Shown: one piece after another, positions 1 to 16,160 of the stretch
How the letters are laid out: every line of letters starts with the position of its first letter
Numbering within the stretch: the first letter of the stretch is position 1
Source: Dolichospermum sp. ST_sed8
Lineage (GTDB): Bacteria; Cyanobacteriota; Cyanobacteriia; Cyanobacteriales; Nostocaceae
Direction of reading: 5' to 3'
Assembly: GCA_028658405.1 (NCBI GenBank)
Contig: JAKOGY010000010.1
Span: 1,607-25,606, forward strand
Length of the DNA: 24,000 bases
Translations under genes and position numbers: made by a program
The notes under the pieces: generated by a model
Database searches by the model: none
The model's input: only the letters and a program-made list of their open reading frames with translations
What the model was told of the DNA's origin: nothing

Positions 1-896
1 TGATACTGTGGTCTGGTATCATTATATTGCTCATTTATTTCCAAACTAGCTACTCCTTTAAAATTACTGTTATTTTGAAGTCTATATTTGAAGTATTCTA
101 GTGACCATCTTTCAAATTTTTGCTGTTCTTCTCGGTATTCTAGCCATTTTGGTTTCCAATCTGAATCTGAGTTATTTCCTAAAAGTTTAGTTAAATGTTG
201 TGTATATGTTTCCGCAGCTTTCTGTTCTTTAGAATCTTTATAACTTGTTTTATATAATCCTGCATTACGAGCAACTGCGCGATTATGAAATAGTAGAAAT
301 AATTCGCCTTTATTTTTACTAACATAATCAGCTATAGAACAGATTTGCTCAAAAGTTACTCCTTTAACTCCAAAAGCATCTAGAAAAAATAATGTTGGAT
401 AGTTTTCTAATTCACTCATTATTTTATCCAATGCTTTATCAAATCTTTGATAATCATACACTTTATAGGATAATCCCTCACCTATTAAACTACAGTTAAT
501 ATTCAGGTTGTGGTTAAGTTCTTTATCTTCTTCAGTAAAAAAGCATCTTAAAATAACACGCTGCTCATCTCCAAATATTTTTGCTAATTTAAGAGCTATC
601 AAAGGTGAACCATCAGTATCTAAAAAATCAGTTTTATATCTGTTCCAAAAATCTGATTTATCCACAAAGTTTTCAATACCAATTCCTTCATCATATTTAC
701 CTTCTCCCGCAAAACCATCAACATAGTTCAGATATTTTGATTGAAAAGGCTTGCTACCACCTAAATTATAACAGAAAGCTTGTATATATCTCAGCATTAT
801 CCGATGTTTAGCAGCAGACCATGTTCTTTTACGTGTAAAAAATTTATTTGAATCTTTTGGTTCTTCATCAAATATAGATAATTGCGTTACTGACAT
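1..896 (-). CDS. TcmP-like protein (three-Cys-motif partner protein family), first 298 codons; 3' end runs off the window
   Basis: Absent from the ORF track because it has no stop in the window. I checked every minus-frame codon from the ATG (894..896) down to position 3 and found no stop. Translation starts MSVTQLSIFDEEPKDSNKFFTRKRTWSAAKHRIMLRYIQAF and contains YVDGFAGEGKY, DGSPLIALK and FFLDAFGVKG. These match the pattern I recall for the TcmP family (W..K...L..Y, hDGFAG, GSP, FLDxFG). Assignment is from memory only. Confidence 0.5.
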   Translation of the reverse strand, partial: MSVTQLSIFDEEPKDSNKFFTRKRTWSAAKHRIMLRYIQAFCYNLGGSKPFQSKYLNYVDGFAGEGKYDEGIGIENFVDKSDFWNRYKTDFLDTDGSPLIALKLAKIFGDEQRVILRCFFTEEDKELNHNLNINCSLIGEGLSYKVYDYQRFDKALDKIMSELENYPTLFFLDAFGVKGVTFEQICSIADYVSKNKGELFLLFHNRAVARNAGLYKTSYKDSKEQKAAETYTQHLTKLLGNNSDSDWKPKWLEYREEQQKFERWSLEYFKYRLQNNSNFKGVASLEINEQYNDTRPQY

Positions 897-1029: not shown

Positions 1030-2160
1030 TTATCTTAATGTCCGAAATATTACCCTTCCTGGATATTCTTCCTGATTAATTCTGGCATACACTCGCAAAC
1101 AAGTTAATACTTCACCAGGATTACCACCACAATCTAATTGCAAGTCATCTTTAGAAAATTCACAAACATCAGCATACAGTCCTGATAACTGTTTAATTCG
1201 AACTTCATTACCTGCTTTAATAGCTTTATCAGCGGCTTTTCTGAGAATAAGACGAGATTCTTTTTGTAATTTCCCCCACCAGGAATAACGTTCAGCAGGG
1301 GGGATAAATACTAGAGAATGGATGGCTTCATCCATGTCAATCCAAGCACATAGGTTAACAATTGTATCAGTATATTCCTCGGATTTTTGAGTTCGATGAA
1401 AGCGATCACTTAATGCATCAATATATTGATGACGTTGTTCTAATTTGGAATATAAAGAAACAATATCAAAGCTAAAAACACTTTTTAAAGCATGATGTAA
1501 ATCTGGATCTATTTCCATAAATTTAATATATAAAAGTAAAAAGCCGGCGATTAAATGTAGGTTTTCTGATAAATTATTTTGGGCAATTTCTGAATTTACC
1601 AGGGCTTTTTGAGATAAACATAGTCCTTTTGCTTTAACTGTACCACTCAACCCCGGATAAATAATTTCATCCCGCACAAATGGTAATTTATCCAGATTTC
1701 TATTATCTACAACTGCACCGACTTCCTCTGCCAATTTCAAAGCCTTTTGTCGCCAAGATGTAGCTAAATCTTCGGGAACGCGTAATAATTTTCTATGAAT
1801 TTCATTCCATATTTCCGCATCAATTTGACTTTGGATATGAGAATTACCTAAATAACAATTTAATTCAGAATCACAATTAAAGGCTTCTTTTAATTTTAAT
1901 AATTTTAATTCATTTGTTAATTTAGGTTGTTTTAGATCCCCGACTTCTTGAAGAAGTTGGGGATTTAGGGATTCTGAGGATGGTAGTTGTAATATTTGAT
2001 CAAGTTCTTGTAGAAGTTCTGCACATAAATTAAATCCAGGATCAAATGGGTATTCTTGATTGGCTTTTGTTAAAGTTGCAGCTAATCCATATAAATTAAA
2101 TCGTAATATTTTAGCTAATTCTGAGTTTTCTATGGTTAGTAATTTATGTAAGTGCTGCAT
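1030..2160 (-). CDS. hypothetical protein, 376 aa, third gene of the dynamin-like/Hsp70-like cluster
   Basis: The track ORF 1030..2406 is trimmed to the internal ATG at 2158..2160 (MQHLHKLLTIENSELAKIL...). The upstream 82 codons read through a palindromic repeat and overlap the end of the previous gene. I recognise no motifs. It has few prolines or glycines and a leucine-rich heptad-like texture, so it is probably mostly helical. Confidence 0.7.
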   Translation of the reverse strand: MQHLHKLLTIENSELAKILRFNLYGLAATLTKANQEYPFDPGFNLCAELLQELDQILQLPSSESLNPQLLQEVGDLKQPKLTNELKLLKLKEAFNCDSELNCYLGNSHIQSQIDAEIWNEIHRKLLRVPEDLATSWRQKALKLAEEVGAVVDNRNLDKLPFVRDEIIYPGLSGTVKAKGLCLSQKALVNSEIAQNNLSENLHLIAGFLLLYIKFMEIDPDLHHALKSVFSFDIVSLYSKLEQRHQYIDALSDRFHRTQKSEEYTDTIVNLCAWIDMDEAIHSLVFIPPAERYSWWGKLQKESRLILRKAADKAIKAGNEVRIKQLSGLYADVCEFSKDDLQLDCGGNPGEVLTCLRVYARINQEEYPGRVIFRTLR

Positions 2161-2188
2161 GATTTTGTGAGGATGAAAATAGAAAAAA

Positions 2189-2265
2189 GTAGGTTGGATT
2201 AAGCGACAGCGCAACCCAACACAAGAATTAATAATGTTGGGTTTCCTTATGTCAACCCAACCTAC
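2189..2265. repeat. 77-bp palindromic MITE-like small repeat (GTAGGTTGG...CCAACCTAC)
   Basis: Terminal inverted repeats are gtaggttgg / ccaacctac. An internal pair is aacccaaca / tgttgggtt. It sits exactly in the gap between two co-directional genes. It resembles the small dispersed palindromic repeats typical of Nostocales genomes. Confidence 0.6.
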
Positions 2266-2275
2266 GGAATTAAAG

Positions 2276-5200
2276 CTAATGAATACCAGAAAATGGATCA
2301 CGTTCTTTATCAACTTCATTGGGTTGTAATTCCAATTCTGCTTGATAAACACATCCTTCCTCTTGCAGACATTCTTGATTATTAGATTTCCAATAAGGAA
2401 CTGCACCAGCGTGCATTCTTAATATTCCTGTATTATCAAGAGTTACATGATATTGACAAGGATAATCTGTGATAATATCCGGTCTGCTGAGTGTACCAAT
2501 CCGGATCCATTTTTTAGTATTGGTTTCATTATCAGTTTGATAAATATAGAAGGTATGTTGACCACTTTGGGGAAATGGTGGCAATGATTTACTAATTAAT
2601 CCTGTTCCTGGTTGCTTCACACCATCCTGTAAATAATGAAATGTTTCTATTAATTTACTATCATCATTATTATCAATTGCAAATACTAAATGATAAGCAT
2701 GAGGTTGATCAACTGTTGCTGACTCTAAAACATTCACAGCAATATCACCATCATTTAAGTTGTGTTGATGGTTTTCTATAGCAATATTCCATTTTAAATT
2801 GCCATCAGCAAACAAGGTATTTTCAGCAGATTTAGATACAACTAAATTCACATCAATACCAGTTACATCTATTAAATAATGGGGATTACCTCGACATAGT
2901 AAAACACTAAATTGTAAAGCTTGATCAATCTCAAATTGAACCTTAATTTTTTTGAGAAATTCCTGTTCTTCCATTCCCAATTTATCCATCAATATTTTAC
3001 CATCAAAACTTCCCCACAGGCGAAAAGTGCCGTTTTCATAATCTTGACGATGGATAATATTAGTTAATTGTATTCCCTGCCAAGGTGTCCGCACCTTCGC
3101 AACAGTATCCCAAGGTGCAAGTTGATATAATTCTTGCCCAGCATTAAAAATAGCTAAGGGTTCGTTACTTTGAGTTTTGCGTTTGAAGTTACAAGGAAGA
3201 TAATAAAACAGGTTTTTGACATCAATTTCTAATTGATTTGCACCTTTGCGTAACAAATTTTTAGACTCTTCAGGATCAAATCGAAAGCGACGCAGTTTTT
3301 CAGCATAACAAGCACCTGCGGAAGTAGCAAGTTTGGTAAATTCTAAAACAAATGTAATTCGTTCTGAATTCCAAACAAAATAGGGTGATTGACTAAATTC
3401 TTCGTAAATTTGTTGTTGAACAAGATCAAGACTACAAGTTTTGCCAGAAAGAATTAACCAATCTACTTTTTGATTAGGTTCTGAACTTAGACGGCTTTCC
3501 ATTAGGCCCTTTGCAATACCAATTGCTTCTTTAATAGAAGACATAGCAGCCCGGTCAAATTGCTCATTATCTAAGGTTATAGAAATAGATTCAGAACTTC
3601 TCACTTGAAATTTAACAGAACTTTGGGACAGCAGTTCGCCAATTTGTTGTTCGTTTAAAGTGAAGGTTAATAAAGAACCATCTGTGGGTGGTTTTTGTCC
3701 TAATTTGAGTTTAGCAGCTTCAGCATGATCCCACAATGTGTAAAAGGTTTGCAGGCGTTGAGTTGCTTGTTGCCAACGGGTTGGTAATACTTTTTCGGCT
3801 GTATCTAGGGCATCTTTAAAGGCAACGTCACCTTCGGGATTTTCTTTATCTATACATTTTAACAAACTTCCAGTTTTAAATTTTCCATCTTCTAAAAAAC
3901 GGTCATTTAATTCGGAGTTAATTAAGTCTTCTAATTTGTCGCTTTCGATGTCACCTATAGTTACTGCGGTGAGAAGAAAATCAGAAATAGCAACTTTCAA
4001 AAGGCGGAAAATTCGTAAAGTAATTAATTCACCACCTAATTGTAAATGTCCAGAAGAACCTAATAGCTTGGGAGTAAGTTTATAGTAACGTCCTCCTAGT
4101 CCTCTATCTTCATTGTCTGCAAAGAAAGGAGTCTTATCTTCTAGGGTAAGTTCAATTAGAGCTAAGTCAGTTGTACCTCCACCAATATCTAAAACCAGGA
4201 CATTTTGTGACCATTTGTTCCCATTTTGATGACAGCGAGTTTTAAAAGATTCAATACCGATATTGAGATTACCGCCAAATTCTCGCCAAAGGAAAAATAT
4301 CGCTACAGAAACAGCTTCGTCATAGGCTGTCTGCACATCATCAATTCCTAATTCCTGTACTAGGTTCTTAATTTCTTTTCTCACTACAGGAGGGGCAACG
4401 GTGGGATAGGTAACAACTGCTGTGAGAAAATCGCCTTCAGAAAATCTGCGTCTACCCCGTTGACGATAATCTTCTGTTAATTCAATTAATTGCGCCCAAG
4501 CTGCTTGAATTAAGTGATTAACTTGAATATTTTCTTCATCTTCTTCTAAGATAATAGGGAAAGAGCGATTTTGTCCAAAATAGCGTTTGGGTGAATGGTG
4601 GAATCTGCTAATAATTTCTTTGACAGAAACAGTTGTTCCTTGGGCTATGGCTTTTTTTCTATTATCTCTGGCATCTCTACCCATGCGGAGTTTTAATGGG
4701 ATTAATTGCGAGACTTCCATTTCGCTGGGAATTTCTGTACTGCGTCTGTCAATATCTAAAACTACGGGAATTAAATTTTGTGATTCTAATGTGGGAACGC
4801 GAAACACTTCATGATATATAGCATAAAGTTTTTTGCTAACAGCCCGCCGAAATCTATCACTTGTTCCTAAACATAATTCAATTTGCCGAATTGCTTCTAA
4901 AAATAATTCTTTGTTATCACTTTCAAAAATTTCACTTAATTGTTCTGATTCTATTTCTAAGTTTTTGCTAATATCAGCCAGAAATTTTTCCCACTCACCA
5001 CTACTAACATCTGGTAAGGCTAAATCTGGTACTGAACTGAGCCATTCAGCCATGCGTTCTCTTAATCTCAATTCTTGTTCTCTGGGTAAAACTTCGGCAA
5101 TGGGGACTTCAATGGGATCAAAAAGTGTCACTGTAGAGTTAGAAGTACCAAAATCTAAAGCTAACCAACCAGGAAATCTTTTTCTTTGTTTTTCGTTGAG

Positions 5201-5692
5201 TTTTTCACTGAGTTGTTGACTTAAATTATTTAGATAGGTGTCAAATTGCGAAGTATTCATGGCTGGATAATTTTTTGTAGATGACTTTGATGGTTTTTCT
5301 AAATTGGGTATAAACCAAAGATCACATTCAGCACATACATGATTAGATATAGACAAATGTGGTTTTCCCTCAGCGTCAGAGTCAAAATATTCGATAATTA
5401 CTTTTAAAGTACAATCAACTATTGTAATTAAAGGTGAATCTAACTGACAGGGATTTTGTCCTAATTGACAAATAGTAGAAATCTTTTTGGGTGTGGCTGA
5501 GTCAAGTTGTCTATAACTGCTTTGAATTTGTGCTGCTAATTGATATGGTGTACCTCTAACTATGCAGGTAATCCGAGAAATATGGGGAATGTTGCTGTTA
5601 ATAGGGACAATTTGAATGGTGGGTAGATGCAACTGTGTGTTTTCTTTGATACCTAATTTAAAGCTAGGTAAAAGCTGAATTTCCACAGGCAT
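2276..5692 (-). CDS. large Hsp70/actin-fold ATPase-like protein (1138 aa) with non-canonical N- and C-terminal domains
   Basis: Phosphate-1 motif is LALDFGTSNSTV (DFGTSNS at 5135..5155). AVVTYPTVAPPVVRKE aligns with DnaK AVITVPAYFND. AYDEAVSVAIFF aligns with IINEPTAAALAY. Phosphate-2 motif is VLVLDIGGGTTDLALIE (4166..4189). GHLQLGGELITLRIF aligns with GDTHLGGEDFD. DWLILSGKTCSLDLVQQQI aligns with VILVGGSTRIP.VQ. AAGGA lies 9 nt upstream of the ATG at 5692. Confidence 0.85.
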   Translation of the reverse strand: MPVEIQLLPSFKLGIKENTQLHLPTIQIVPINSNIPHISRITCIVRGTPYQLAAQIQSSYRQLDSATPKKISTICQLGQNPCQLDSPLITIVDCTLKVIIEYFDSDAEGKPHLSISNHVCAECDLWFIPNLEKPSKSSTKNYPAMNTSQFDTYLNNLSQQLSEKLNEKQRKRFPGWLALDFGTSNSTVTLFDPIEVPIAEVLPREQELRLRERMAEWLSSVPDLALPDVSSGEWEKFLADISKNLEIESEQLSEIFESDNKELFLEAIRQIELCLGTSDRFRRAVSKKLYAIYHEVFRVPTLESQNLIPVVLDIDRRSTEIPSEMEVSQLIPLKLRMGRDARDNRKKAIAQGTTVSVKEIISRFHHSPKRYFGQNRSFPIILEEDEENIQVNHLIQAAWAQLIELTEDYRQRGRRRFSEGDFLTAVVTYPTVAPPVVRKEIKNLVQELGIDDVQTAYDEAVSVAIFFLWREFGGNLNIGIESFKTRCHQNGNKWSQNVLVLDIGGGTTDLALIELTLEDKTPFFADNEDRGLGGRYYKLTPKLLGSSGHLQLGGELITLRIFRLLKVAISDFLLTAVTIGDIESDKLEDLINSELNDRFLEDGKFKTGSLLKCIDKENPEGDVAFKDALDTAEKVLPTRWQQATQRLQTFYTLWDHAEAAKLKLGQKPPTDGSLLTFTLNEQQIGELLSQSSVKFQVRSSESISITLDNEQFDRAAMSSIKEAIGIAKGLMESRLSSEPNQKVDWLILSGKTCSLDLVQQQIYEEFSQSPYFVWNSERITFVLEFTKLATSAGACYAEKLRRFRFDPEESKNLLRKGANQLEIDVKNLFYYLPCNFKRKTQSNEPLAIFNAGQELYQLAPWDTVAKVRTPWQGIQLTNIIHRQDYENGTFRLWGSFDGKILMDKLGMEEQEFLKKIKVQFEIDQALQFSVLLCRGNPHYLIDVTGIDVNLVVSKSAENTLFADGNLKWNIAIENHQHNLNDGDIAVNVLESATVDQPHAYHLVFAIDNNDDSKLIETFHYLQDGVKQPGTGLISKSLPPFPQSGQHTFYIYQTDNETNTKKWIRIGTLSRPDIITDYPCQYHVTLDNTGILRMHAGAVPYWKSNNQECLQEEGCVYQAELELQPNEVDKERDPFSGIH

Positions 5693-5780
5693 TTTTGATG
5701 TTCCTTTTTTTGTTGATTAATAATTCATTGATAGTGCATTTCCCTAATGTTTATTTATTTGAATAATATGGATTAAATGA

Positions 5781-5820
5781 ACCACGAAGGAGCGAAGGAC
5801 ACGAAGGAAGAAGGAAGAAA
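5781..5820. repeat. short tandem CGAAGGA-type repeat in the intercistronic gap
   Basis: The plus strand reads accaCGAAGGAgCGAAGGACACGAAGGAAGAAGGAAGAAA, starting 8 nt beyond the dynamin-like gene stop (5828..5830). This is a repeat type I recall as common in Nostocales intergenic DNA. Confidence 0.5.
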
Positions 5821-5827
5821 CTACCAA

Positions 5828-8386
5828 TTAAATATAGCTGAATAGTTCGGCTTCATTAATTGTGGCAATATCGGTTAAAATTTCTAACCAAGCAGGAATG
5901 GCTAATTCAGCTTGTGAATCTCTAGCAGCAATATATCTGAGTAGTGTTTCTTTTTTGGCAAGGTTTTGCAAACTGGGAATTATTTGATCTAAAATTCCAT
6001 TGATTTCTATATTTACTTGTTGATTGCTTTCACTTACATACTGGACAAGGTGAAGACTAGCACTAGCGGTAATTTCATCTCGCAGTCGGAGGACGAAAAG
6101 TTGATGATTCGTGCTTCTAGATGGGTTTTGATTTCTTTCGGGAGACCAATCAAAAATTTGCCCTATACTATGTTTTTCATCTTGTTTAGCTAGAGGAAAA
6201 ATACTTTCTGGTTTGATACTTTGATCATGGTTATTGATTTCGGCAATTATGGCTTCTTTCCACTGACGAGGATCACATCCTAATAACAGTTTATAAAATA
6301 AGTCGGCTTCTTCAAGTCCAAATTTTTCTTCAATTTCTTGTTCCATTTCTGGCTGAAGAATGGCTTGCAGTTTTTCCCGTTCTAATGTGATTTGATGTGC
6401 CATTGAGCTTAATAAGTCTATCACGGCTTGACGAATGCGATCGCTCGCAAAGGTTTCCAATTCTTTGACTGTTTTCTCAAAGGCTGGATAAAAGTCATCA
6501 CTCTTAGTTGGTAAGGAGGTATTTACCCGATTTCCTCTATCAAATAATTTCCCTGCTGCACCTTTAAATTCTGCTAAGGTAATTGTGCCATTTTGGACTT
6601 TATTAAATAGTAATGTCCATTGACTCCAATTTAAAATTCTCAATGTTAGTTCATCTTTAATGACATCACTAACTACAATTCCTCTCCGATCTTTTAGTTG
6701 TTCTTTCCCTAAACCTTTTTGGAAGTTTCTATAGATTTTATCTAAACTTTCTATGGCTAATCGCAGTTCCATTAACGCCGGAGTATCAACTGTGGGTATG
6801 CCTTGTTCATGAATTTCGGCAATAATCTCTTTGAGATATTCTTGTTGTTGACGAATTACATCAGCAGCCCGACGGCTATCTTCATACAATTGTTTTAACC
6901 CGTGATTAGCAACATGAGTTTGAATTAATTCTCTTAATTTACTAATACCGCCATCTTGGGCAAAATAACCTAATTGTTTTCCTAATTGATTTCGTCCATC
7001 TACTGCTAATAAACCTTCGCTTAAATCACCCCATTTCTGTTGTAGTTTCTTTGGTCTTTCCAAATAATCAGGATAATCTAAATTGGCGAGAAATTCCTCA
7101 GAACCAGCTTTCACTTGACTAGAACGTTTAGCCAATTCAGCTAATCCTAACAGGGGTGATAATAAAACAATTCTGTCTTTTTGAGAAGTGAATGCTTCAG
7201 CCCCATCAATAATGGTTTTGAGAACTTTCAATTTTTGGAAAACTGTATTTGTTTGTAAAGGTTGAAGATTAGATTGATTAGCAATTAATAAATCTAGTTC
7301 CCTTTCCCCACCTTCACTTTCTAAAGGTAGTTGATCAAAACGTCCCACACCTACAAGAATTAAGTCTTTTAGGTCTTGTCCAGGGCGTTTTTGCTGCATC
7401 ATTGTGAAAATTTTATTGGCGCGATCGCTCCCTGGCGATTTACCATTAAGTAAGACTAAAATTGTCTGTACCTGTGTCAATTCTCGCAATGATAAAAATG
7501 TATCTCTAGTTCCAGAATTAGCCGCACCCAAACCGGGAAAATCTAACAGGACAAATTCTTCTGCACCTGTCACATCCCAAATTTCTCTTGATATTTTCAC
7601 TTCAATATCAACGCGACGAATTAAGAGAAAACTAGTTTGTAATAATTGCGTCCCTAATCTTTGTGGCGCGTTTGGTAAGCGAATAGGTGCTGCTGGTAAA
7701 TCCTCAAATTTGAGAGATTGAATCGCCATGGGCATTTCTGCCAGTTGTAAACCTTCACGGGCGGTGATAGCATCAATTTGGTAAAAGCGACCGCATAAAG
7801 CCTCACCATAAGCCTGATAAGCCCGCAAAAATGACAATAACTCCCGCACCAAATAACGCAACTCTAAATTATTTGAGCTTTTCCAAACTTCCTCACACCA
7901 AATACTGATATCTTTACCAGTTTTAATTTTAACTACCTGTAAAGGTGTCACCCCAGCAGACGTAGCGCGACGGTTTGCTTCTTTGAGCATGAAGTGTAAG
8001 CACTCATTCACCCCTTCGTGGGATAAATATTCTACCGTATAATTATTTACTTGGGTAGTTGCAAAACCATCTTGAGGTTTAACATGAATAGCTGTGACAT
8101 TACCAGTTGTCGGATTTTCACTCACTGGTAAAGCGTCCGCATAACCAATCAGACTTCCTAGCAACAAACTTTTACCGCTGCTAAATTCCCCCATTACGCC
8201 GATTTTCACCGGTGAGGTTGCCAGTTTTACCGTGTTTTCAGCCGCTTCTCGTAACCGCAACAAACAATCATCCAGACTAGTGGGAACCCAATCTTCCTCC
8301 TGGGAAGGGCGTTGGGGTACTGAGTCAATTTTGCGGAGGATAAATTCACCGTACTCTTTCAATCGTGCCAGCTTATCTGGTTCCAT
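5828..8386 (-). CDS. dynamin-family (bacterial dynamin-like) GTPase, 852 aa
   Basis: G1 P-loop is GVMGEFSSGKSLLLGSL (GEFSSGKS at 8168..8191). G2 candidate threonines lie in NPTTGNVTAI. G3 is LLDFPGLG (DFPG at 7532..7543). The G4-like motif is LVGVGRFDQL (GRFD at 7334..7345). A long C-terminal region of about 500 aa follows, as in dynamin-like stalk/paddle regions; its likely helical nature is a guess from composition. Confidence 0.8.
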   Translation of the reverse strand: MEPDKLARLKEYGEFILRKIDSVPQRPSQEEDWVPTSLDDCLLRLREAAENTVKLATSPVKIGVMGEFSSGKSLLLGSLIGYADALPVSENPTTGNVTAIHVKPQDGFATTQVNNYTVEYLSHEGVNECLHFMLKEANRRATSAGVTPLQVVKIKTGKDISIWCEEVWKSSNNLELRYLVRELLSFLRAYQAYGEALCGRFYQIDAITAREGLQLAEMPMAIQSLKFEDLPAAPIRLPNAPQRLGTQLLQTSFLLIRRVDIEVKISREIWDVTGAEEFVLLDFPGLGAANSGTRDTFLSLRELTQVQTILVLLNGKSPGSDRANKIFTMMQQKRPGQDLKDLILVGVGRFDQLPLESEGGERELDLLIANQSNLQPLQTNTVFQKLKVLKTIIDGAEAFTSQKDRIVLLSPLLGLAELAKRSSQVKAGSEEFLANLDYPDYLERPKKLQQKWGDLSEGLLAVDGRNQLGKQLGYFAQDGGISKLRELIQTHVANHGLKQLYEDSRRAADVIRQQQEYLKEIIAEIHEQGIPTVDTPALMELRLAIESLDKIYRNFQKGLGKEQLKDRRGIVVSDVIKDELTLRILNWSQWTLLFNKVQNGTITLAEFKGAAGKLFDRGNRVNTSLPTKSDDFYPAFEKTVKELETFASDRIRQAVIDLLSSMAHQITLEREKLQAILQPEMEQEIEEKFGLEEADLFYKLLLGCDPRQWKEAIIAEINNHDQSIKPESIFPLAKQDEKHSIGQIFDWSPERNQNPSRSTNHQLFVLRLRDEITASASLHLVQYVSESNQQVNIEINGILDQIIPSLQNLAKKETLLRYIAARDSQAELAIPAWLEILTDIATINEAELFSYI

Positions 8387-8423
8387 AGAGTAGTCTTTCG
8401 TTTGAGTTCATTTTCACAACTGG

Positions 8424-8432
8424 GTTATAACA
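8424..8432 (-). promoter_or_regulatory. possible extended -10 promoter element upstream of the dynamin-like gene
   Basis: Minus strand reads TGTTATAAC (TGn + TATAAC), about 38 nt upstream of the ATG at 8386, in the 121-bp gap after mazF. Motif only; there is no convincing -35. Confidence 0.2.
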
Positions 8433-8507
8433 CAAAACCTCAAAACTATTCCTATGTGGTGCAACGAAAACAGGCAAAACGCAAGACGGAAGCGGGAATT
8501 TCTGTTT

Positions 8508-8876
8508 CTAATCTTTATCTAAAGCTATTTCTTTTGGTTCTGTTATCATAGCTACACCTGCTAAAATTTGTCTAATTCTTTCTTGAGATAGCTTACCTAT
8601 TTTTTCAGTTAATAAGGCTTTATCTACTGTAAAAAGTTGCGATACATTTACTACACTTTGTCTATCAAGATTAGCTTCTCCTAACTCTAGTAAAACATTA
8701 CCCATTGCCTTAGCTCGTCGCAAATTAGAAGTTAATGCACAAACTATGACTGTTCTGATTTGAGAACTGTTGAGCAAATCATTTTGGATTACCACATAAG
8801 GACGGAGATAAGCTGGTTCTGAACCTATTGGTTCTCCCAAATCAATCCAATAAATATCACCTTGCTTAATTACCAT
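8508..8876 (-). CDS. mazF: type II toxin, MazF/PemK family endoribonuclease
   Basis: MVIKQGDIYWIDLGEPIGSEPAYLRPYVVIQND...VIVCALTSN is the typical PemK/MazF N-terminal signature. Its ATG overlaps the stop of the upstream antitoxin gene (8870..8876). Confidence 0.85.
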   Translation of the reverse strand: MVIKQGDIYWIDLGEPIGSEPAYLRPYVVIQNDLLNSSQIRTVIVCALTSNLRRAKAMGNVLLELGEANLDRQSVVNVSQLFTVDKALLTEKIGKLSQERIRQILAGVAMITEPKEIALDKD

Positions 8877-9124
8877 TCTTTTGCTTGTAATTTTCCTTGG
8901 TGGTGTCGCATTGCTTCTAACATGATTTGTTCTGATTCATCTAAATCATCTGCATAAGCTTCATTAATACTTTCTAGCAATTGACGATGTTTTTTATGAC
9001 GCAAAAATTCTGCCATTGCTATAGCAAATAATTTACTCCGAGGAATTTTCATTTCATTCGCTAAAGCGTTGACTTCCTCATAAAGCGATTCTTCAATGGA
9101 GATAGCCGTTTTGATACTGGTCAT
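8870..9124 (-). CDS. ribbon-helix-helix (CopG/MazE-like) antitoxin
   Basis: 84 aa. N-terminal KTAISIEESLYEEVNALANEMKIPRSKLFAIAMAEFL fits a strand-helix-helix RHH pattern. The C-terminus is acidic. It is translationally coupled to the MazF/PemK gene. Confidence 0.75.
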   Translation of the reverse strand: MTSIKTAISIEESLYEEVNALANEMKIPRSKLFAIAMAEFLRHKKHRQLLESINEAYADDLDESEQIMLEAMRHHQGKLQAKEW

Positions 9125-9127
9125 TGA

Positions 9128-9190
9128 GTTATACCATTTTTCTGACTGAGGGTATAACTTAATTTTACTTTGTTTCTATAATTTTTACAA
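9128..9190 (-). promoter_or_regulatory. putative TA promoter with operator-like inverted repeat
   Basis: Minus strand reads TTGTAA (9190..9185), 17 nt, TAAAAT (9167..9162). An 8-bp inverted repeat GTTATACC (9128..9135) / GGTATAAC (9151..9158) follows, between the -10 and the antitoxin ATG. This layout fits autoregulated RHH antitoxin operators. Confidence 0.4.
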
Positions 9191-9217
9191 GCAATACCGA
9201 AAAGCATTAGCGGTAGC

Positions 9218-9439
9218 TTACCAAAGATACGCCCAAGTAATCACTTGAGGATGTAATCTAATGGAAACTGATTGATATTTTTCTGTTCCACTTTTAACTG
9301 GTCTTCCTCGTCGAGTGTAATTGATTCCAAACTGTTCTTGAATAGCTTGTTCAGCAGCTATTACTTCTGATGGACTAATTCTTCTAGCATAAGCAAAAGG
9401 AAATTCATCATTCTTCTTCATCTTAAAAAGTGATACCAT
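9218..9439 (-). pseudogene. BrnA/DUF4415-like antitoxin-type ORF, apparently C-terminally truncated
   Basis: The 73-aa ORF contains RRGRPVKSGTEKYQSVSIRLHPQVITWA. This resembles the RGRP...K..vSIRL.p.vl.W core I recall for BrnA/DUF4415 proteins. It stops (..WAYLW*) where homologues, as I recall, continue about 25 aa further. No BrnT-like partner is present. Confidence 0.3.
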
Positions 9440-9444
9440 AAGGT

Positions 9445-9633
9445 TTAAAATTTAGGTAATAAATCAGCTTGTTTACAAATTGCATTGGCAGTAATGCGGT
9501 CAATTGCACGATGTCTTTTGACGGGAATAGTTTTTATATCATTAGTATAAATAGAATGATTGCCACCTTCCCGCAATAAATAAAATCCATTTTCTTCCAA
9601 ATACTTAATTAAATCTTTTCGTTTTACGGACAT
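9445..9633 (-). CDS. hicA: type II toxin HicA (mRNA interferase)
   Basis: 62 aa. KRKDLIKYLEENGFYLLREGGNHSIY...IPVKRH..I...TANAICKQA is the classic HicA/YcfA pattern. It lies 2 nt downstream of hicB. Confidence 0.85.
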   Translation of the reverse strand: MSVKRKDLIKYLEENGFYLLREGGNHSIYTNDIKTIPVKRHRAIDRITANAICKQADLLPKF

Positions 9634-9635
9634 GA

Positions 9636-9854
9636 TTACACTTCTACAGGAATTTGTTCAAGTAAAGAGTTTCCTGTGGGAATTTCTTTATTTTGCTGAT
9701 GATAGGCAAAAATCATTTCTTTGAGTGCATCTTGTAACATAGCTCGGCATATTTCTAGTGTTTCTCCTTCGGTAATGACTTCTTGCCATTCAATCAGTTG
9801 TCCCATATATCCACTATTTATTTTGGTATATTTGGCGGTGTATGTAGTTAACAT
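9636..9854 (-). CDS. hicB: HicB-family antitoxin (short, N-terminal HicB fold only)
   Basis: 72 aa. YTAKYTKINSGYMGQLIEWQEVITEGETLEICRAMLQDALKEMI matches the HicB-like pattern (Y.a.....e.gy.a.......v.t.GeTleEa......Al...). It is adjacent to hicA. Confidence 0.75.
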   Translation of the reverse strand: MLTTYTAKYTKINSGYMGQLIEWQEVITEGETLEICRAMLQDALKEMIFAYHQQNKEIPTGNSLLEQIPVEV

Positions 9855-9965
9855 AAGACATTAATTAAGGGTATTTTCTAAATTATAACTTTTTTTGAGC
9901 GATAGATCTTTATTCTCCATAACCACAGAAAAGCGATACATCAATCTTAATATTTTATCACAAAC

Positions 9966-9994
9966 GTAGGGGTTTAGCATTGCTAAACCCCTAC
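9966..9994. repeat. 29-bp perfect palindrome GTAGGGGTTTAGCA-T-TGCTAAACCCCTAC
   Basis: 14-nt arms are perfectly complementary. It shares GTAGG/CCTAC termini with the repeats at 2189..2265 and 20694..20714. It lies in the gap between convergently ending blocks, and could double as a terminator hairpin. Confidence 0.6.
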
Positions 9995-10211
9995 AATCAT
10001 TGACGGTAGATAAAGGATTTCTATGTTCGCTTCGCTATTGCATTTACACCCGAATTAGACAGTAGTTATCTGCATCACTTGTTCCTGATTTATTATTGGC
10101 GACAAAATGCTTCTTGATGGCAACATTACCATTCAGATTCCAATTTTGATCCCATACATAGAAACCAGATACTCTATATTTTTACACTATTATCTGGTAT
10201 TTATGATCTTT

Positions 10212-11075
10212 TTACAAAATAATTGGCAACACACTATAGCTACCAAAGATTTTCAAGATTTCTGTGTAATTTTGTAATTCCTCTAAAGCAGATTTCATCA
10301 TCTGTGTATTCACATCTGCTTCTATGTCCAAATAAAATAAATATTCCCCTAAAGAACGTTTTGTGGGACGCGATTCAATGCGACTGAGGTTAATACCCAA
10401 ATGAGCAAATACCTCTAATGCTTTCATTAATGCCCCTGGTATATTAGCTGGTACACTAAAGGCTAGAGATGTATGAGTACAATCAATAGTATTATTTTCC
10501 TCCGTGCTAACTACCCAAAACCGAGTGCAGTTTTCTGGATAATCATTAATTTCCCTAGCGAGAATAGGTAAATTATACAGTTGTGCGGCTCTACTAGATG
10601 ATATAGCTGCTGTTGTTATTTCCTCTTCTAATCCTTGTAGTGCTTCAGTAGTAGAATTACTCGGAATTAAATTGACATTTGGTAAAAACTGTGACAACCA
10701 TCCCTGGCATTGAGCTAGGGCTTGAGGATGTGAATATACAGTTTTAATAGAGTCTAAACTAGTTGCGAAGGAAATTAATGTATGTTGAATTGGTAGAACT
10801 AAAGCTAATTGAATTTTTAAACTCTCTAATTGCCATAAGCTATCTAGTGTCATATTGACACTGCCTTCAATAGAATTTTCCACAGGGACAACAGCTATTT
10901 CTGCTTTTTTGTCTGTTATAGCTTGTAGTGATTGAGCAATTGTCGAATATGGACATAGTTCAAAACTTTTTTGAGAAGTAATGCCCTGGTGGGTGTTTAA
11001 CCAGTTGAGATAAAAAAAAGCCGCTTGTTCGGCATAAGTTCCCGGTGGACCTAAATGAGCAATTTTCAGATTCAT
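10212..11075 (-). CDS. pheA: prephenate dehydratase
   Basis: The N-terminus IAHLGPPGTYAEQAA, then VPVENSIEGSV, and the ACT-domain signature SRIESRPTKRSLGEYLFYLDIE are canonical PDT motifs. 287 aa. Confidence 0.9.
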   Translation of the reverse strand: MNLKIAHLGPPGTYAEQAAFFYLNWLNTHQGITSQKSFELCPYSTIAQSLQAITDKKAEIAVVPVENSIEGSVNMTLDSLWQLESLKIQLALVLPIQHTLISFATSLDSIKTVYSHPQALAQCQGWLSQFLPNVNLIPSNSTTEALQGLEEEITTAAISSSRAAQLYNLPILAREINDYPENCTRFWVVSTEENNTIDCTHTSLAFSVPANIPGALMKALEVFAHLGINLSRIESRPTKRSLGEYLFYLDIEADVNTQMMKSALEELQNYTEILKIFGSYSVLPIIL

Positions 11076-11183
11076 GCGTTTAAATTTGATGAGTTTGATG
11101 AATAATAAAATAAGAGTTTGATTTTTGGCAATTTAAATTGTTAAAAAATATTACAATAAAAAAACAAATGGTTTAATTTGCTC

Positions 11184-11780
11184 ATGGTTACTAAGTTTAT
11201 TGCCTCTCAATCGGTGGAAATTTCCGTTCCTCAGCAATCTATTCCTATTCAACACTACTTACGTCAACCGCAACGTTTGGTAAATGCCTTAGTTGATAAT
11301 ACAAGAATTCAACAACTTTCTGATGAAGTATTTCGGTTGAAAATGCGTCCTCTGTCTTTTATGTCACTGAGTATCCAACCAACTGTAGATATGAGAGTTT
11401 GGGCAGATGCTAATGGTACAATTTATTTGCGATCGCTCGGTTGTGAAATCCTGGGTTTTGAGTATATTAACCAAAGGTTTGCTCTGAATTTAAAAGGCTA
11501 TTTGTCACCAATGGAACTCAATGGTGAAACTCACCTGCAAGGAAAAGCTGATTTAGAAGTTTTGGTAGACATACCGCAACCATTTTCCTTTACACCTAAA
11601 TCAATTTTAGAAACCACAGGTAATGGATTGCTCAAAAGTGTGTTGTTAACGATTAAGCAAAGATTGTTACACCACCTTCTAGAAGATTATCGGCATTGGG
11701 GTATCCAAGAAGCTAGTAACACCAAAATTGATCATAACATTCCTGATAGCGCAAACCATATTACCAAGCTTGAATTTTGA
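11184..11780 (+). CDS. DUF1997-family protein (conserved in cyanobacteria and plastids)
   Basis: YLRQPQRLVNALVD...FRLKMRPLSFMSLSIQPTVDMRVW...LRSLGCEILG...TGNGLLKSVLLTIKQRL matches my memory of DUF1997 proteins. I prefer the ATG at 11184 over the TTG at 11178 used by the track. Confidence 0.7.
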   Translation: MVTKFIASQSVEISVPQQSIPIQHYLRQPQRLVNALVDNTRIQQLSDEVFRLKMRPLSFMSLSIQPTVDMRVWADANGTIYLRSLGCEILGFEYINQRFALNLKGYLSPMELNGETHLQGKADLEVLVDIPQPFSFTPKSILETTGNGLLKSVLLTIKQRLLHHLLEDYRHWGIQEASNTKIDHNIPDSANHITKLEF

Positions 11781-11787
11781 ACCGTCC

Positions 11788-11823
11788 TCATCTGCGTTTA
11801 TCTGCGTTTATCTGCGTTCGATA
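11788..11823 (+). repeat. 3x tandem decamer repeat (TCATCTGCGTT-type), copy A
   Basis: Sequence is tcatctgcgtttatctgcgtttatctgcgttcgata, starting 8 nt after the DUF1997 stop. It is about 86% identical (31 of 36 positions by my hand alignment), in the same orientation, to 13911..13946. Confidence 0.7.
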
Positions 11824-11878
11824 ATTCTTGATATTTTATTCCATCAGGTACATATCACGTTTCCAGGATTCAAGAGCA

Positions 11879-12442
11879 ATGACAACATTAGTTACACAAT
11901 CTTTGACTCTCGAAGAGTTTCTCAAACTACCAGAAACAAAACCTGTCAGCGAATACATCAACGGTGAAATTATTATCAAGCCAATGCCAAAAGGGAAGCA
12001 TAGCCGATTACAGTTAAAACTGTGCAATAGTGTTAATGATGTCACCGAAAGTGAAAAGATTGCTTATGCTTTTCCTGAACTACGCTGTAGTTTTGGTATT
12101 CGCTCAATAGTACCTGACGTAGCGGTTTTCAACTGGCCGCGCATTTCCTTTGCTGCTGACGGAGAAGTTCCTAATGATTTTCTGATTTTTCCAGACTGGA
12201 CAATTGAAATTCTTTCCCCAGACCAAAGTTCAAATCGAGTTATAGATAATATTCTTTATTGCTTAAATCATGGTTGTCAATTAGGTTGGTTGATAGACCC
12301 ACAAGACCGATCTATTTTGGTTTTCCGTTCAAATCAACAGCCAGAAATTTTCAGAGGAAATGAGCTTTTGCCAGTATTAACTGGAATTAATTTAGAATTA
12401 ACAGTTGCTCAAGTATTTGGTTGGCTTAAAATGAGTAATTAG
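11879..12442 (+). CDS. Uma2-family (DUF820) putative endonuclease
   Basis: LTLEEFLKLPETKPVSEYINGEIIIKPMPKGKHSRLQ...VPDVAVF...DWTIEILSPDQS...GCQLGWLIDPQDRSILVF is the typical Uma2 pattern. The start is trimmed to the ATG at 11879 (MTTLVTQ), because the track's upstream extension reads through the decamer repeat region. Confidence 0.85.
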   Translation: MTTLVTQSLTLEEFLKLPETKPVSEYINGEIIIKPMPKGKHSRLQLKLCNSVNDVTESEKIAYAFPELRCSFGIRSIVPDVAVFNWPRISFAADGEVPNDFLIFPDWTIEILSPDQSSNRVIDNILYCLNHGCQLGWLIDPQDRSILVFRSNQQPEIFRGNELLPVLTGINLELTVAQVFGWLKMSN

Positions 12443-12546: not shown

Positions 12547-13596
12547 CTAAAATGCGTAATCATAGCCATCTTTGCGGTGAATGATTTTGCAGTATTTATA
12601 ACTAATACCCTGAACTAATTTTGATGCGGAAATATTGAAAGAACCTGTTGCTCTAACTGCAACACGACCAATATATTTACCGATTTTTTTCCCAGTAGTA
12701 ACAATTGCTTTCACAATATCACCGGTCTGAAAACCTTTAACAAATTTAATTCTCGGCACATATCGAGATGGAAAACCAAACTTGTCAGTCCGACACATTT
12801 GACGAGTTCCATGCCCTGTTGCTTTGATTAGCAAAGGCTTGTTCGTTAAAATTTCCAATTCTCCAATTTGTCCAACACAAGCAGCATCTAGCCAATGAGT
12901 TTTAGGAAACTTTAATCTAGTTCGGTTGAACTTAGTTTGACCACCTCTGGCTTGAGGATGAATATGCTCAACTTGCAAGGGAACATTCTCAATCCCACAG
13001 TAAGCACATTTTCTCTGCCATTTTTCTAGTAGATACTCACGGACTTCGTACCCGGACAAAGTGCCTTGCTGATATTCAATACCTGATATTTCTGGATTGT
13101 CTATTTGTTGCAGGTCAAATCTGACAAGCTCTTGAGATATCCTTGTGATGGGAGCAAACTTAATGAGTTTGTTAACCCAAGTGAAAGTAGTCTCAACTCG
13201 ATGCTGCAAACTTGGAGCTAACCAATTTTTTGTCCTAGTTCTATTCAAGAATCTGGCTTGACGATAGCGAGTATGGCGGTTTCGTCTCCCCCTGCGGAGT
13301 GAGCGACGGGATTCTAGGGAAGCTTTAATTACATTTCCTCGATGAGAAAGTTCTCCACCAAAAATGATTTTTTCTCCCTGAATCAATGCTATGCCCGTAG
13401 TTTTGGAACCAGGATCTATTTTGAGTTCTATTGCTTGGTTAACAATATCTGAGCATGACTTGTTTAAGATGATAGTAAAGGGATACCTCCTAAATACAGC
13501 AGCTTTTCCAGAATCCAATAATTTCCTTGCTACCGAGGGATGACAAGGGCTTAAAGGTTGTTTGTTTGTGTCGAGAACTAATGCGTAATTTGACAT
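12547..13596 (-). CDS. iscB: IscB-like RNA-guided nuclease (RRXRR/HNH/RuvC), short form with apparent HNH deletion
   Basis: PLMP-type N-terminus is LDTNKQPLSPCHPSVARKLLDSGKAAVFRRYPFTIIL. RuvC-I is ELKIDPGSKTTGIAL. The Arg-rich bridge helix is RRSLRRGRRNRHTRYRQARF. RuvC-II is ISQELVRFD. The first half of the HNH is CAYCGIENVPLQVEHIHPQARGG. This is fused directly to QTKFNRTRLKFPKTHWLDAACVG, a RuvC-III region. Confidence 0.8.
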   Translation of the reverse strand: MSNYALVLDTNKQPLSPCHPSVARKLLDSGKAAVFRRYPFTIILNKSCSDIVNQAIELKIDPGSKTTGIALIQGEKIIFGGELSHRGNVIKASLESRRSLRRGRRNRHTRYRQARFLNRTRTKNWLAPSLQHRVETTFTWVNKLIKFAPITRISQELVRFDLQQIDNPEISGIEYQQGTLSGYEVREYLLEKWQRKCAYCGIENVPLQVEHIHPQARGGQTKFNRTRLKFPKTHWLDAACVGQIGELEILTNKPLLIKATGHGTRQMCRTDKFGFPSRYVPRIKFVKGFQTGDIVKAIVTTGKKIGKYIGRVAVRATGSFNISASKLVQGISYKYCKIIHRKDGYDYAF

Positions 13597-13910
13597 TTCT
13601 GCCTCTGGAGATTTCTCAGGTAATGTTCGCTTTGACCTTGTTATCTAAGCTTATTAGGCTTGCAACACTGTAAAGCGTGACTTTAAAACTGTTTAATTGC
13701 AAACGACAGAGCGGAAAACTAGCGTCGCATTCTCCGGTGTCTTGACTCAAATAACGGCTACCCTTCGACTATACTCAGGGTGGTCTGGTCAGTATAGCTT
13801 GCTTGATTACTCTTACAAGCTCAGTGGCTTGGTTCCCTGAGTTACTGACAGTTAGCTGTAATTTCAGTCATTGTGATTAAATTAAATATACTTAAAATAT
13901 TAACACATCT
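13597..13910 (-). ncRNA. candidate IscB omega-RNA (scaffold; the guide would lie at or beyond the 13910 end)
   Basis: This 314-nt ORF-free stretch lies directly 5' of iscB, where omega-RNAs are encoded. It has several local stems: agcttg/caagct (~13796..13821), accct/agggt (~13761..13784) and nested actga-acag/ctgt-tcagt (~13843..13867). No covariance model could be run. Confidence 0.45.
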
Positions 13911-13946
13911 TCATCTGTGTTCATCCGCGTTTATCCGCGTTCGATA
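13911..13946 (+). repeat. 3x tandem decamer repeat, copy B (overlaps the hsdM stop codon)
   Basis: Sequence is tcatctgtgttcatccgcgtttatccgcgttcgata. It is a direct-orientation counterpart of 11788..11823. The hsdM stop codon (13931..13933) and its last five sense codons (NIERG) lie inside it. Confidence 0.7.
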
Positions 13947-15490: not shown

Positions 15491-15751
15491 TTAGTTGCTT
15501 ACCCTTTACTGTCTAATTTATTAAGCTTCTGTTCCATCAGTAGCAATTGGTGAAAGCTGAAAGCGGCCACTTTACTAACGGTTCATTATGAAATATTTTA
15601 CAGTCAGATGTGCAACAGTAGCTTTTTTCGCTCCGTTTCCAGAGCGTCTGCTAGACAAAAGCTACACCAATAATATATTACCGCCAACAAACAGCGATAC
15701 TTAGCTTTTAAGTTGTCCATAAGAGAACTCCACAAAAAAGATTATCCAATT

Positions 15752-15813
15752 TTGTGGGATGGGCATCTTGCCCGTCCTTGTATTATTAGGGGACCAGATG
15801 CCCGCACCACAAG
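15752..15813. repeat. imperfect inverted-repeat element (TTGTGGGATGGGCATCT ... AGATGCCCGCACCACAA)
   Basis: The 17-nt arms are complementary at 14 of 17 positions and separated by about 28 nt. The GGGCAAGATGCCC-type core is a repeat I recall as frequent in Nostocales intergenic regions. Confidence 0.4.
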
Positions 15814-15865
15814 AAATTTTGGGATATTTTTTTAATTGGAAGTCTCTAACTGTATCAAAGTAGTA

Positions 15866-15955
15866 TTATTCACGGGTTAGCAGTTCCAAATTATGACCAT
15901 TGGTGTCATAGAAGTAAAAACCTCGACCACCTTTTCTGTGATTAATTTCACAAGA
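15866..15955 (-). pseudogene. 3'-terminal remnant of a glyoxalase/VOC-family gene
   Basis: The minus-strand translation ...EINHRKGGRGFYFYDTNGHNLELLTRE* matches the conserved C-terminal strand pattern of VOC/glyoxalase proteins (G.r.fYf.DpdGh.lEL). There is no start codon, no upstream body, and it abuts the TnpB element right end. Confidence 0.5.
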
Positions 15956-15959
15956 TCTC

Positions 15960-16160
15960 GCGGTATGCGGGAAGCTCAGTCCCTTTAGGGATGGGTTACT
16001 AACCTTAATGTTGGTGCATAATGCTTTGACACTCCCCGCTCTAAAGAGACGGGGATTCTTAAGATTTTACAATCCTAATATCCTGCTCACACAGGTTCCC
16101 AGACTCAGTACGTTTGCACAAAAGTGCGTGCTGATATCTTCTGGGCGTTTAGCTGTTAAA
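15960..16160 (-). ncRNA. candidate TnpB omega/right-end RNA scaffold
   Basis: TnpB guide RNAs derive from the tnpB 3' end plus the right end. This ORF-poor 200 nt contains stems such as ccccgtctc/gagacgggg (about 16044..16074). It ends at the element boundary, so the guide would read into the flanking VOC remnant. Confidence 0.4.

Follow-up and report, generated by a model that had tools for sequence, protein, structure and literature searches.

The 24,000-nt stretch analysed here, hereafter the window, comes from Dolichospermum sp. ST_sed8 (GenBank assembly GCA_028658405.1, contig JAKOGY010000010.1, positions 1,607 to 25,606 of the forward strand) and carries three open reading frames (ORFs) that run in one direction on its minus strand, at 8386..5828, 5692..2276 and 2160..1030. 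The first of them (gene 1; 5828..8386, minus strand) encodes a dynamin-like GTPase of 852 amino acids, recognised by a Dynamin_N match and by its motifs; the second (gene 2; 2276..5692, minus strand) encodes a protein of 1138 amino acids that profile comparison and motifs assign to the SrfB-type Hsp70/actin-fold ATPases; and the third (gene 3; 1030..2160, minus strand) encodes an orphan partner protein of 376 amino acids that is the constant third member of the module. These three genes, which we call the trio, form an operon-like unit whose conservation extends from the Nostocales to bacteria outside that order. An earlier note, made from the letters of the window, had singled them out as a candidate system that pairs two different NTPase machines with an unrecognised partner, and both the co-directional ORFs and the motifs that it quoted were all found. 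Each of the three genes has hundreds of conserved homologues, which places them far beyond chance ORFs, and the window matches proteins of Dolichospermum sp. ST_con with full identity. The mechanically called ORF of gene 3 extends to a GTG at 2406, but all homologues begin at the ATG at 2160 (MQHL).

Spacers of 135 bp (5693..5827, minus strand) and 115 bp (2161..2275, minus strand) separate gene 1 from gene 2 and gene 2 from gene 3, respectively, and a region of 121 bp (8387..8507, minus strand) lies 5′ of gene 1, up to a MazF-like gene. We infer that the operon promoter is likely to lie within 8387..8507. A scan of promoters and terminators gave a site count no higher than that of shuffled sequence, and no promoter site is claimed; a convincing terminator was not found in the 115-bp spacer between genes 2 and 3.

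Comparison of gene 1 with the Pfam family Dynamin_N gave an E-value of 5e-9 (36.8 bits, above the cut-off of 27). The protein displays a G1 motif (GEFSSGKS, residues 66-73, including K72), a switch-I region (PTTGN, residues 92-96), a G3 motif (LLDFPG, residues 280-285, with DFPG at 282-285) and an atypical G4 motif (GVGRFDQLP, residues 346-354). Across the family the G4 position reads GVGRF(D/N)Q, that is, with RF(D/N)Q in place of the canonical (N/T)KxD. An insertion of about 200 amino acids separates G1 from G3, the C-terminal half is long, and an alignment of relatives showed that the catalytic residues of this dynamin-like family are invariant. Sequence searches of the PDB, carried out with gene 1 alone and with the family profile, matched no solved dynamin-like protein. 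Homologues are publicly named "dynamin family protein" and also, in many NCBI and UniRef records, "proteasome protein", a name that none of the family searches run on gene 1 supported.

Gene 2 is a predicted member of the Hsp70/actin-fold ATPase superfamily. Its putative ATPase core (about residues 170-800; 3293..5185, minus strand) includes the phosphate-1 motif DFGTSNS (residues 180-186, with D180 and T183), the phosphate-2 motif DIGGGTTD (residues 502-509), an LGGE motif (residues 552-555), the adenosine-motif region DWLILSGKT (residues 744-752) and a helical insertion at about residues 205-295. Residues D180, G182, K369, D458, E459, D502, G504, G506, D509 and G750 were invariant across 44 diverse relatives, and the family profile of 44 sequences matched solved DnaK nucleotide-binding domains with an E-value of 3e-9. 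When searched alone, gene 2 stayed below the Pfam thresholds both for SrfB (PF07520; 22.4 bits against 27.1, over residues 450-519 only) and for HSP70 (13.7 bits against 20.6), whereas relatives at 75-81% identity carry a precomputed PF07520 match. The names given to its relatives in databases are "virulence factor SrfB", "molecular chaperone" and "DnaK (HSP70)". We tentatively place gene 2 within the named SrfB family or adjoining it.

The core is flanked by two further regions. A beta-rich domain (residues 1-130; 5303..5692, minus strand) occupies the N-terminal position, which varies within the family: it is absent in Nostoc forms of 991 amino acids, longer in many relatives and made of a TIR domain plus repeats in relative P0382. 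At eight Nostoc loci (L024, L025, L027, L029, L034, L036, L043 and L051) the ATPase of about 991 amino acids is accompanied by a DUF2887 gene between the dynamin and ATPase genes, and the short ATPase form occurs without that insert at other Nostoc loci (L004, L006 and L009). The family-specific C-terminal region (about residues 801-1138; 2279..3292, minus strand) ends in a conserved RDPFxGxH; it had no match in Pfam and appears beta-rich in a structure model of low confidence. This AlphaFold2 model, like the others made here, was built from an alignment restricted to close homologues (at least 64-93% identical to the query). Its mean predicted local distance difference test (pLDDT) score was 46.7, and only the N-terminal beta domain was confident, with a pLDDT of about 80. 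The top Foldseek matches of the model were Hsp70 nucleotide-binding domains, and the N-terminal domain weakly resembled PapD/MSP-like (Ig/PapD-like) beta-sandwiches (E-value about 1e-2); both results are leads and not proof.

Gene 3 yielded no match in Pfam, NCBIfam, PADLOC or the PDB, profile searches of the PDB included, in agreement with the view of the earlier note that this protein holds no recognised motif. It is mostly helical and has a highly conserved C-terminal half (DEAxHS...PPxxRYSWWG...GGxPGEVLxCLR), whose invariant residues hold across 14 diverse members, one of them from a genome rich in guanine and cytosine (high GC). An AlphaFold2 model derived from an alignment of 31 Nostocales sequences reached a pLDDT of 57, and a Foldseek comparison of this model with the PDB gave nothing below an E-value of 1.6. 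One UniRef homologue is labelled "Fido domain-containing"; Pfam gave no Fic/Fido match.

We examined the conservation of the trio in a neighbourhood set of 90 loci encoding a gene 2 relative, taken from genomes and metagenomes. The metagenome loci are the best 80, all of them at least 49% identical, and the scan of genome contigs contributed at least 9 loci, the phyletic breadth being a lower bound. Loci were counted only when at least 3.2 kb of upstream sequence (n = 70) or at least 1.5 kb of downstream sequence (n = 75) was available. A dynamin gene lay directly upstream of the ATPase gene on the same strand in 69 of the 70 loci, and L066 also shows one in its gene map. Gene 3 lay directly downstream, again on the same strand, in 73 of 75. 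In the other two, L049 and L062, which are contigs nearly identical to each other and have 10 kb of downstream sequence, the dynamin and ATPase genes are present and gene 3 is missing (tblastn negative); they are the only clear trio exceptions among the cyanobacterial loci. The dynamin and ATPase genes overlapped by 11 bp at their tightest junction and were separated by a median of 208 bp, sometimes with an inserted gene between them; for the ATPase gene and gene 3 the corresponding values were an overlap of 44 bp and a median gap of 124 bp. The core families were present in 89, 77 and 77 loci, while any flanking family was present in at most 24. Bit scores also showed parallel divergence of the three families from one subgroup to the next. 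Thus, the proposal that the three genes act as a unit stood up well: their order is the same in nearly every related locus, and the trio recurs outside the Nostocales, once in permuted form.

The first two genes have been paired before. In a Pfam-based survey, Jilly et al. (2018, Front Plant Sci, PMC5827413) distributed 121 cyanobacterial dynamin-like proteins into six clades, one of which, the "chaperone clade", has 11 members, all from heterocystous Nostocales and all with a DnaK-domain gene directly downstream. Among these members are Cylst_0498, whose neighbour is annotated as "molecular chaperone", and Nos7524_3124, whose downstream neighbour is annotated as "Virulence factor SrfB" (PMC5827413). 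As in that clade, the window holds a cyanobacterial Dynamin_N GTPase gene with a DnaK-domain gene 135 bp downstream on the same strand. In addition, the gene 3 family includes Cylst_0501, which is three genes from Cylst_0498, and for this reason we regard the window trio as the same locus as the chaperone clade, by an indirect link that goes through neighbours. The architecture, of which the earlier note could not say whether it had been reported, has therefore been described before. The 2018 survey covers the two-gene pairing only, with no third gene, non-cyanobacterial members, TIR variant, relation to SrfABC or experiments (PMC5827413), and the cluster is not taken up again in a review published by that field in 2023. 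Beyond the survey, the present analysis adds that the third gene is constant, that the unit extends to other phyla, that a permuted variant with a TIR fusion exists, that the locus is syntenic and that there is a limited link to SrfABC. The lineage of Anabaena/Nostoc PCC 7120 appears to carry the trio as well (BAB73103 for gene 1 and BAB73105 for gene 3). The locus tags alr1404-1406, which had been guessed for it from accession offsets, were wrong, alr1404 being cysE.

Within the Nostocaceae the trio mostly occurs in a recurrent chromosomal block that comprises a PAS-GAF histidine kinase gene, the trio, cytochrome b561, a D12 (Dam-like) methyltransferase gene, a trpD-like gene, an Asp protease gene, carA and genes for STAS, RNase III and SpoU proteins. 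This block is present in Trichormus, Heteroscytonema, Nostoc and relatives of Dolichospermum/Aphanizomenon, and the trio proteins of Dolichospermum and Trichormus share about 65-75% identity. This pattern suggests that the Nostocaceae trio is passed on vertically and is not a mobile island. A largely fixed, syntenic core position of this kind, beside carA and the RNase III and SpoU genes, counts against the candidate system by the earlier note's own reasoning; co-occurrence across phyla with variable flanks, for which that note proposed to look, holds outside the Nostocaceae. In a second subgroup, at about 50% identity, which includes Fischerella, Scytonema HK-05, Rhizonema and numerous contigs from metagenomes, the flanks vary, and since one assembly holds two copies (L066 and L073), paralogues exist.

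The surroundings of the trio in the window are accessory, as had been noted: family searches identified MazF/RHH and HicA/HicB toxin-antitoxin modules, PheA, Uma2, IscB, HsdM, TnpB and TcmP. The toxin-antitoxin modules and TcmP are not common even to relatives at 92-93% identity (L013-L022), and because of their absence there we consider the accessory genes beside the window trio to be strain-specific local insertions. The gene for TcmP (three-Cys-motif partner protein, TIGR04474, E-value 3e-27; 3-896, minus strand) reaches the window edge, and its usual partner gene would fall outside the window. A Uma2-family putative endonuclease gene (PF05685, E-value 8e-35; 11828-12442, plus strand) lies between pheA and an IscB gene with RRXRR and HNH domains (12547-13596, minus strand). 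Directly 5′ of the latter we found a full-length HEARO RNA (Rfam RF02033, 123.9 bits, E-value 1.4e-25; 13620-13849, minus strand), and the two together look like an intact IscB-omegaRNA (OMEGA) element. A type I methylase gene, hsdM (N6_Mtase and HsdM_N; 13931-15490, minus strand), has no hsdS or hsdR nearby and is flanked by the IscB/HEARO element and by a tnpB gene (OrfB_IS605/Cas12f-like; 16156-17520, minus strand). In close relatives of the window (L017-L019) a gp25-like baseplate wedge gene (PF04965) is located just 5′ of the trio; it may belong to a contractile injection system or be left over from a prophage.

Relatives of gene 2 extend well beyond the Nostocales. A HMMER search of a protein library returned 428 related clusters at 50% identity, 225 of them with E-values below 1e-30, and we looked up the contexts of six distant representatives together with one genome locus from Micromonospora. 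L093 (38% GC) encodes a TIR-ATPase of 1549 amino acids, a gene 3 homologue (hidden Markov model E-value 1e-82) and a dynamin (E-value 1e-202) in permuted order. Its TIR domain (PF13676, E-value 4e-21) keeps the catalytic-type glutamate of the SxWxxxE motif; at 3391-11868 of this metagenome contig the SrfB-like ATPase, whose N-terminus has repeated helical segments in addition to the TIR domain, is followed by gene 3 and then by the dynamin, and a DDE transposase gene adjoins. L095 (70% GC) holds a dynamin cut at the contig end (C-terminal half, E-value 3e-18), the ATPase, gene 3 (E-value 7e-26) and a weakly kinase-like protein. At L096 (58% GC) the dynamin and the ATPase are found without gene 3; at L098 (50% GC) the same pair is followed by a TPR protein and an ADP-ribosylglycohydrolase; the P0387 locus shows the ATPase, a 368-amino-acid gene and a protein kinase; and the P0453 locus shows the ATPase alone. 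The Micromonospora carbonacea locus L010 (76% GC) has a weak dynamin-like ORF with P-loop and G3 (E-value 3e-6), the ATPase and a gene-3-like ORF (profile E-value 1e-10), weak matches whose E-values come from very small search sets. Directly after this actinobacterial version of the trio are genes for vWA and Tubulin_2 (PF13809) proteins (14273-18902). The kinase-like gene of L095 (5840-6778) and the protein kinase gene of the P0387 locus both come after gene 3 and recall the kinase-like N-terminal domain of SrfA; they could be a coincidence or a recurring fourth component.

Some resemblance to characterised or proposed systems was found. The trio and Eleos (LeoA/LeoBC) both rely on a dynamin-like GTPase of bacterial type, and both may be connected with phage or membrane stress, but the window lacks a second or third dynamin of the LeoBC type and the partner here is an Hsp70-fold ATPase. 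The match of gene 1 to the PADLOC profile of LeoA (E-value 1.7e-4) covers 47 residues (56-102) in the P-loop region only, so the connection to Eleos drawn in the earlier note is one of analogy and not of membership. By these comparisons, the trio is neither Eleos nor a catalogued candidate system. The DO-GTPase/GAP1 conflict systems described by Kaur, Burroughs, Iyer & Aravind (2020, eLife, PMC7159879) are found mostly in multicellular bacteria, count TIR among their effectors and recruit either a canonical HSP70 with GrpE and DnaJ or a tubulin with vWA. Like the trio, they bring a GTPase together with a constant "third" component and with an NTPase that either is of the Hsp70 family or forms polymers; they differ in having a separate TRAFAC GTPase, canonical Hsp70s and effectors that are hypervariable, in contrast to the constancy of the Nostocales trio. 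That paper uses neither the word "dynamin" nor the word "SrfB" (PMC7159879). Next to the Micromonospora trio, the vWA and tubulin genes recall the actinobacterial tubulin/vWA theme of these systems and may be part of one of the DO-GTPase type. Paired dynamin-like proteins (the NosDLP/BDLP1 pair, DynA, DLP1/DLP2 and Streptomyces DynAB) resemble gene 1 in their dynamin-family G domain and long C-terminal region, and by this analogy a membrane role for gene 1 is plausible. They differ from it in that the window contains no second dynamin and that the G domain of gene 1 has a large insertion, an atypical G4 and no detected paddle.

We tentatively put first, with somewhat less than even confidence, a reading in which the trio is one co-inherited complex, driven by nucleoside triphosphates (NTPs), that serves as a conditionally triggered membrane or infection-response switch. 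The SrfB-like ATPase would be the hub of this complex and would bind both the dynamin-like protein and the gene 3 product. Actin-fold ATPases often polymerise, and ATP binding might change the assembly state of the hub to an oligomer or a filament. The N-terminal position of the ATPase would hold an exchangeable sensor or effector, presumably the beta-sandwich here and the TIR NADase in one relative, while the dynamin-like protein would add GTP-dependent self-assembly, probably at a membrane. Bacillus subtilis DynA protects membranes under phage attack, and the complex of the trio might act in a comparable way or as an abortive-infection switch, being mostly idle until envelope damage or infection triggers the protection or the sacrifice of the cell. 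In the Nostocales the module would by now be fixed in the chromosome and passed on by vertical descent, not as a mobile island.

Several observations are consistent with this triggered switch: the permuted order at L093 retains all three parts, the counts of the neighbourhood set and the parallel divergence of the families point to a unit, the trio recurs at L095 and, with weaker matches, in Micromonospora, both predicted NTPase sites are conserved, the N-terminal domain of the ATPase varies or is lost, and a preprint model places the three Srf proteins in one complex. The TIR-fused relative bears on it more directly. TIR NADases are switched on by oligomerisation, and a constitutive machine could not tolerate an NADase that depends on it, which argues that activation would be conditional. 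It is this reasoning, together with the conflict-type neighbours of the non-Nostocales loci, that makes the triggered switch our first choice. The earlier note had proposed a sensor/effector or membrane-surveillance module, and the TIR-fused relative fits the sensor/effector logic of that proposal; in the Nostocaceae the trio does not behave like a hopping defence island.

Several points weigh against the switch. The window version has no effector recognisable in family searches, and the TIR fusion was seen in one of the 150 representatives examined. PADLOC-DB v2 gave no known defence system for the trio, the only matches being that to LeoA at the P-loop level and one of 29 residues to PDC-M61B; when the relatives of the trio were searched with PADLOC, TIR-domain matches alone were returned. 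A syntenic and conserved trio, as found in the Nostocaceae, is a lineage-core pattern that is not typical of defence systems. As for the proteins themselves, the G4 of gene 1 is atypical and its GTP specificity is a prediction. Hydropathy analysis revealed neither a hydrophobic paddle in gene 1 nor a transmembrane segment in any of the three proteins, and membrane binding by the trio is for that reason a prediction too. The structure models of the trio are of low confidence and offer no evidence on interfaces or on the fold of gene 3, and a literature search found no experimental work on the cluster.

The main alternative is that the trio is a lineage-specific housekeeping machine that remodels membranes in filamentous heterocystous cyanobacteria. 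The dynamin would then fuse or divide thylakoid, septal or differentiation membranes, the ATPase would assemble or disassemble the dynamin as Hsc70 does on coat proteins, and the gene 3 product would be a cofactor. We regard this explanation, which was proposed by Jilly et al. (2018, PMC5827413), as a serious if doubtful possibility, and it comes close behind the switch because of the broad syntenic conservation in the Nostocales. Wide representation across Nostocales genera, high sequence conservation with fixed synteny beside housekeeping genes in the Nostocaceae and the lack of a match in the defence database (PADLOC) are all in its favour. It accommodates less well the close relative in which a TIR NADase is fused to the ATPase and both partners are kept, an arrangement hard to square with constitutive activity. 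High-GC bacteria that are not photosynthetic and lack thylakoids carry the trio too, and the paralogous copies in one assembly, the variable flanks of the subgroup at about 50% identity and the failure of the hydropathy analysis to detect a membrane-binding segment tell against it as well. Both explanations could merge in a membrane protection similar to that of DynA.

A quite different possibility is that the trio is the cyanobacterial counterpart of the SrfABC "toxin", with the three proteins exported and harming eukaryotic cells such as grazers. The Salmonella srf operon is SsrB-regulated, Xenorhabdus SrfABC has been reported to be cytotoxic, and the families concerned are PF07520 (SrfB) and PF10139 (SrfC). 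Both systems have a three-gene core whose central member is a SrfB-type Hsp70-fold ATPase of about 1000-1140 amino acids. Comparison of the gene 2 family profile (44 sequences) with SrfB of Erwinia and Brenneria gave an hhalign probability of 97% (E-value 4.7e-11) over 157 columns that include the TYPT/LPSAMP and YDEA/WDEA blocks. The homology is confined to this stretch of the ATPase core, the N- and C-terminal regions being unaligned. SrfC resembles gene 1 in being a large P-loop NTPase of 800-900 amino acids with GxxxxGK[ST], a switch-I-like TG.VT block and the same LLDFPG. Nevertheless, the profile-profile match between the two, over the N-terminal helix, the P-loop and switch I, was not significant (probability 30-34%, E-value about 5e-4), and gene 1 had no PF10139 match in Pfam. 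Gene 3 was compared with the remaining srf proteins and was rejected both as SrfA (hhalign probability 0.3%; gene 3 has no transmembrane segment) and as the TPR/Sel1 gene of srf clusters (no relation in the profile comparison).

The organisation of the two loci differs as well. Canonical srf clusters, which we found in Erwinia and Brenneria and on plasmids of Klebsiella, Haematospirillum and Gluconobacter (L102-L104), have the order [vWA], SrfA, SrfB, SrfC, TPR/Sel1, vWA, ABC ATPase, FtsX-type permease, SUMF1/FGE. The order is thus A-B-C, as against GTPase-B-third in the window trio, and the vWA, ABC transporter and SUMF1 companions are absent from the window. SrfABC is often carried on plasmids, SrfC homologues being found on 142 PLSDB plasmids, 114 of them from Klebsiella, whereas a plasmid search with gene 2 gave no match to the cyanobacterial type. 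In a 2026 preprint, an AlphaFold 3 model has SrfA, SrfB and SrfC in one complex, SrfA being a membrane-anchored protein with a kinase-like domain, a transmembrane helix and a lipocalin-like domain; the same preprint questions the "secreted effector" label. In our literature search, SrfB and dynamin were not connected by any paper, and no paper presented the trio as a defence system. The window trio, as far as profiles can tell, uses a SrfB-type hub and yet is not a SrfABC system. With so restricted a SrfB homology, a third protein unrelated to its srf counterparts, no srf companion genes and no transmembrane segment in the three proteins, we consider an exported cyanobacterial toxin very improbable.

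Canonical Hsp70 systems (DnaK-DnaJ-GrpE, HscA and those of the HscC/YegD type) share with gene 2 the nucleotide-binding fold and all the phosphate-binding motifs. Gene 2 differs from them in its family-specific N- and C-terminal domains and, as the earlier note had observed, in having no Hsp70 substrate-binding domain or lid that we could find; neither DnaJ nor GrpE, that is, no J-protein or exchange factor, and no second dynamin were found within the window, again as reported there. It is because of these absences that we do not regard the trio as a classical chaperone system, and the profile searches placed the proteins of 1138 and 376 amino acids in no known chaperone pathway. That gene 2 is an ordinary Hsp70 chaperone with an unusual C-terminus, lying by chance beside dynamin and hypothetical genes, is suggested by its Hsp70-like motifs and by the database names mentioned above, but is the least credible of the alternatives, since its NCBIfam scores for DnaK, HscA and HscC (12-15 bits) are far under the cut-offs (331-822) and chance adjacency is excluded by an arrangement kept in 69/70 and 73/75 loci that survives a change of gene order.

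A broader claim would join these lines, and we think it unlikely to hold in full. According to it, the trio would represent a widespread class of NTP-driven immune or stress switches in which ATP-dependent polymerisation of the actin-fold hub activates the N-terminal domain (a TIR NADase in some relatives) and recruits the dynamin to act on a membrane; SrfABC would be a divergent branch with SrfC as a cryptic dynamin, and the class would have become fixed in multicellular bacteria such as Nostocales and Micromonospora.

Bacterial dynamins are largely without assigned functions, and a dynamin paired to an Hsp70-fold ATPase had been noted once before. A three-gene unit that is kept across phyla and through a change of gene order, and that is able to carry a TIR effector, turns this pairing into a concrete hypothesis, and the unexplained SrfABC operon gains a possible wider family. 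Should the trio be a triggered switch, bacterial immunity would gain a mechanism of the actin-fold/dynamin kind; if it is a housekeeping machine, it would be a membrane-remodelling apparatus characteristic of heterocystous cyanobacteria.

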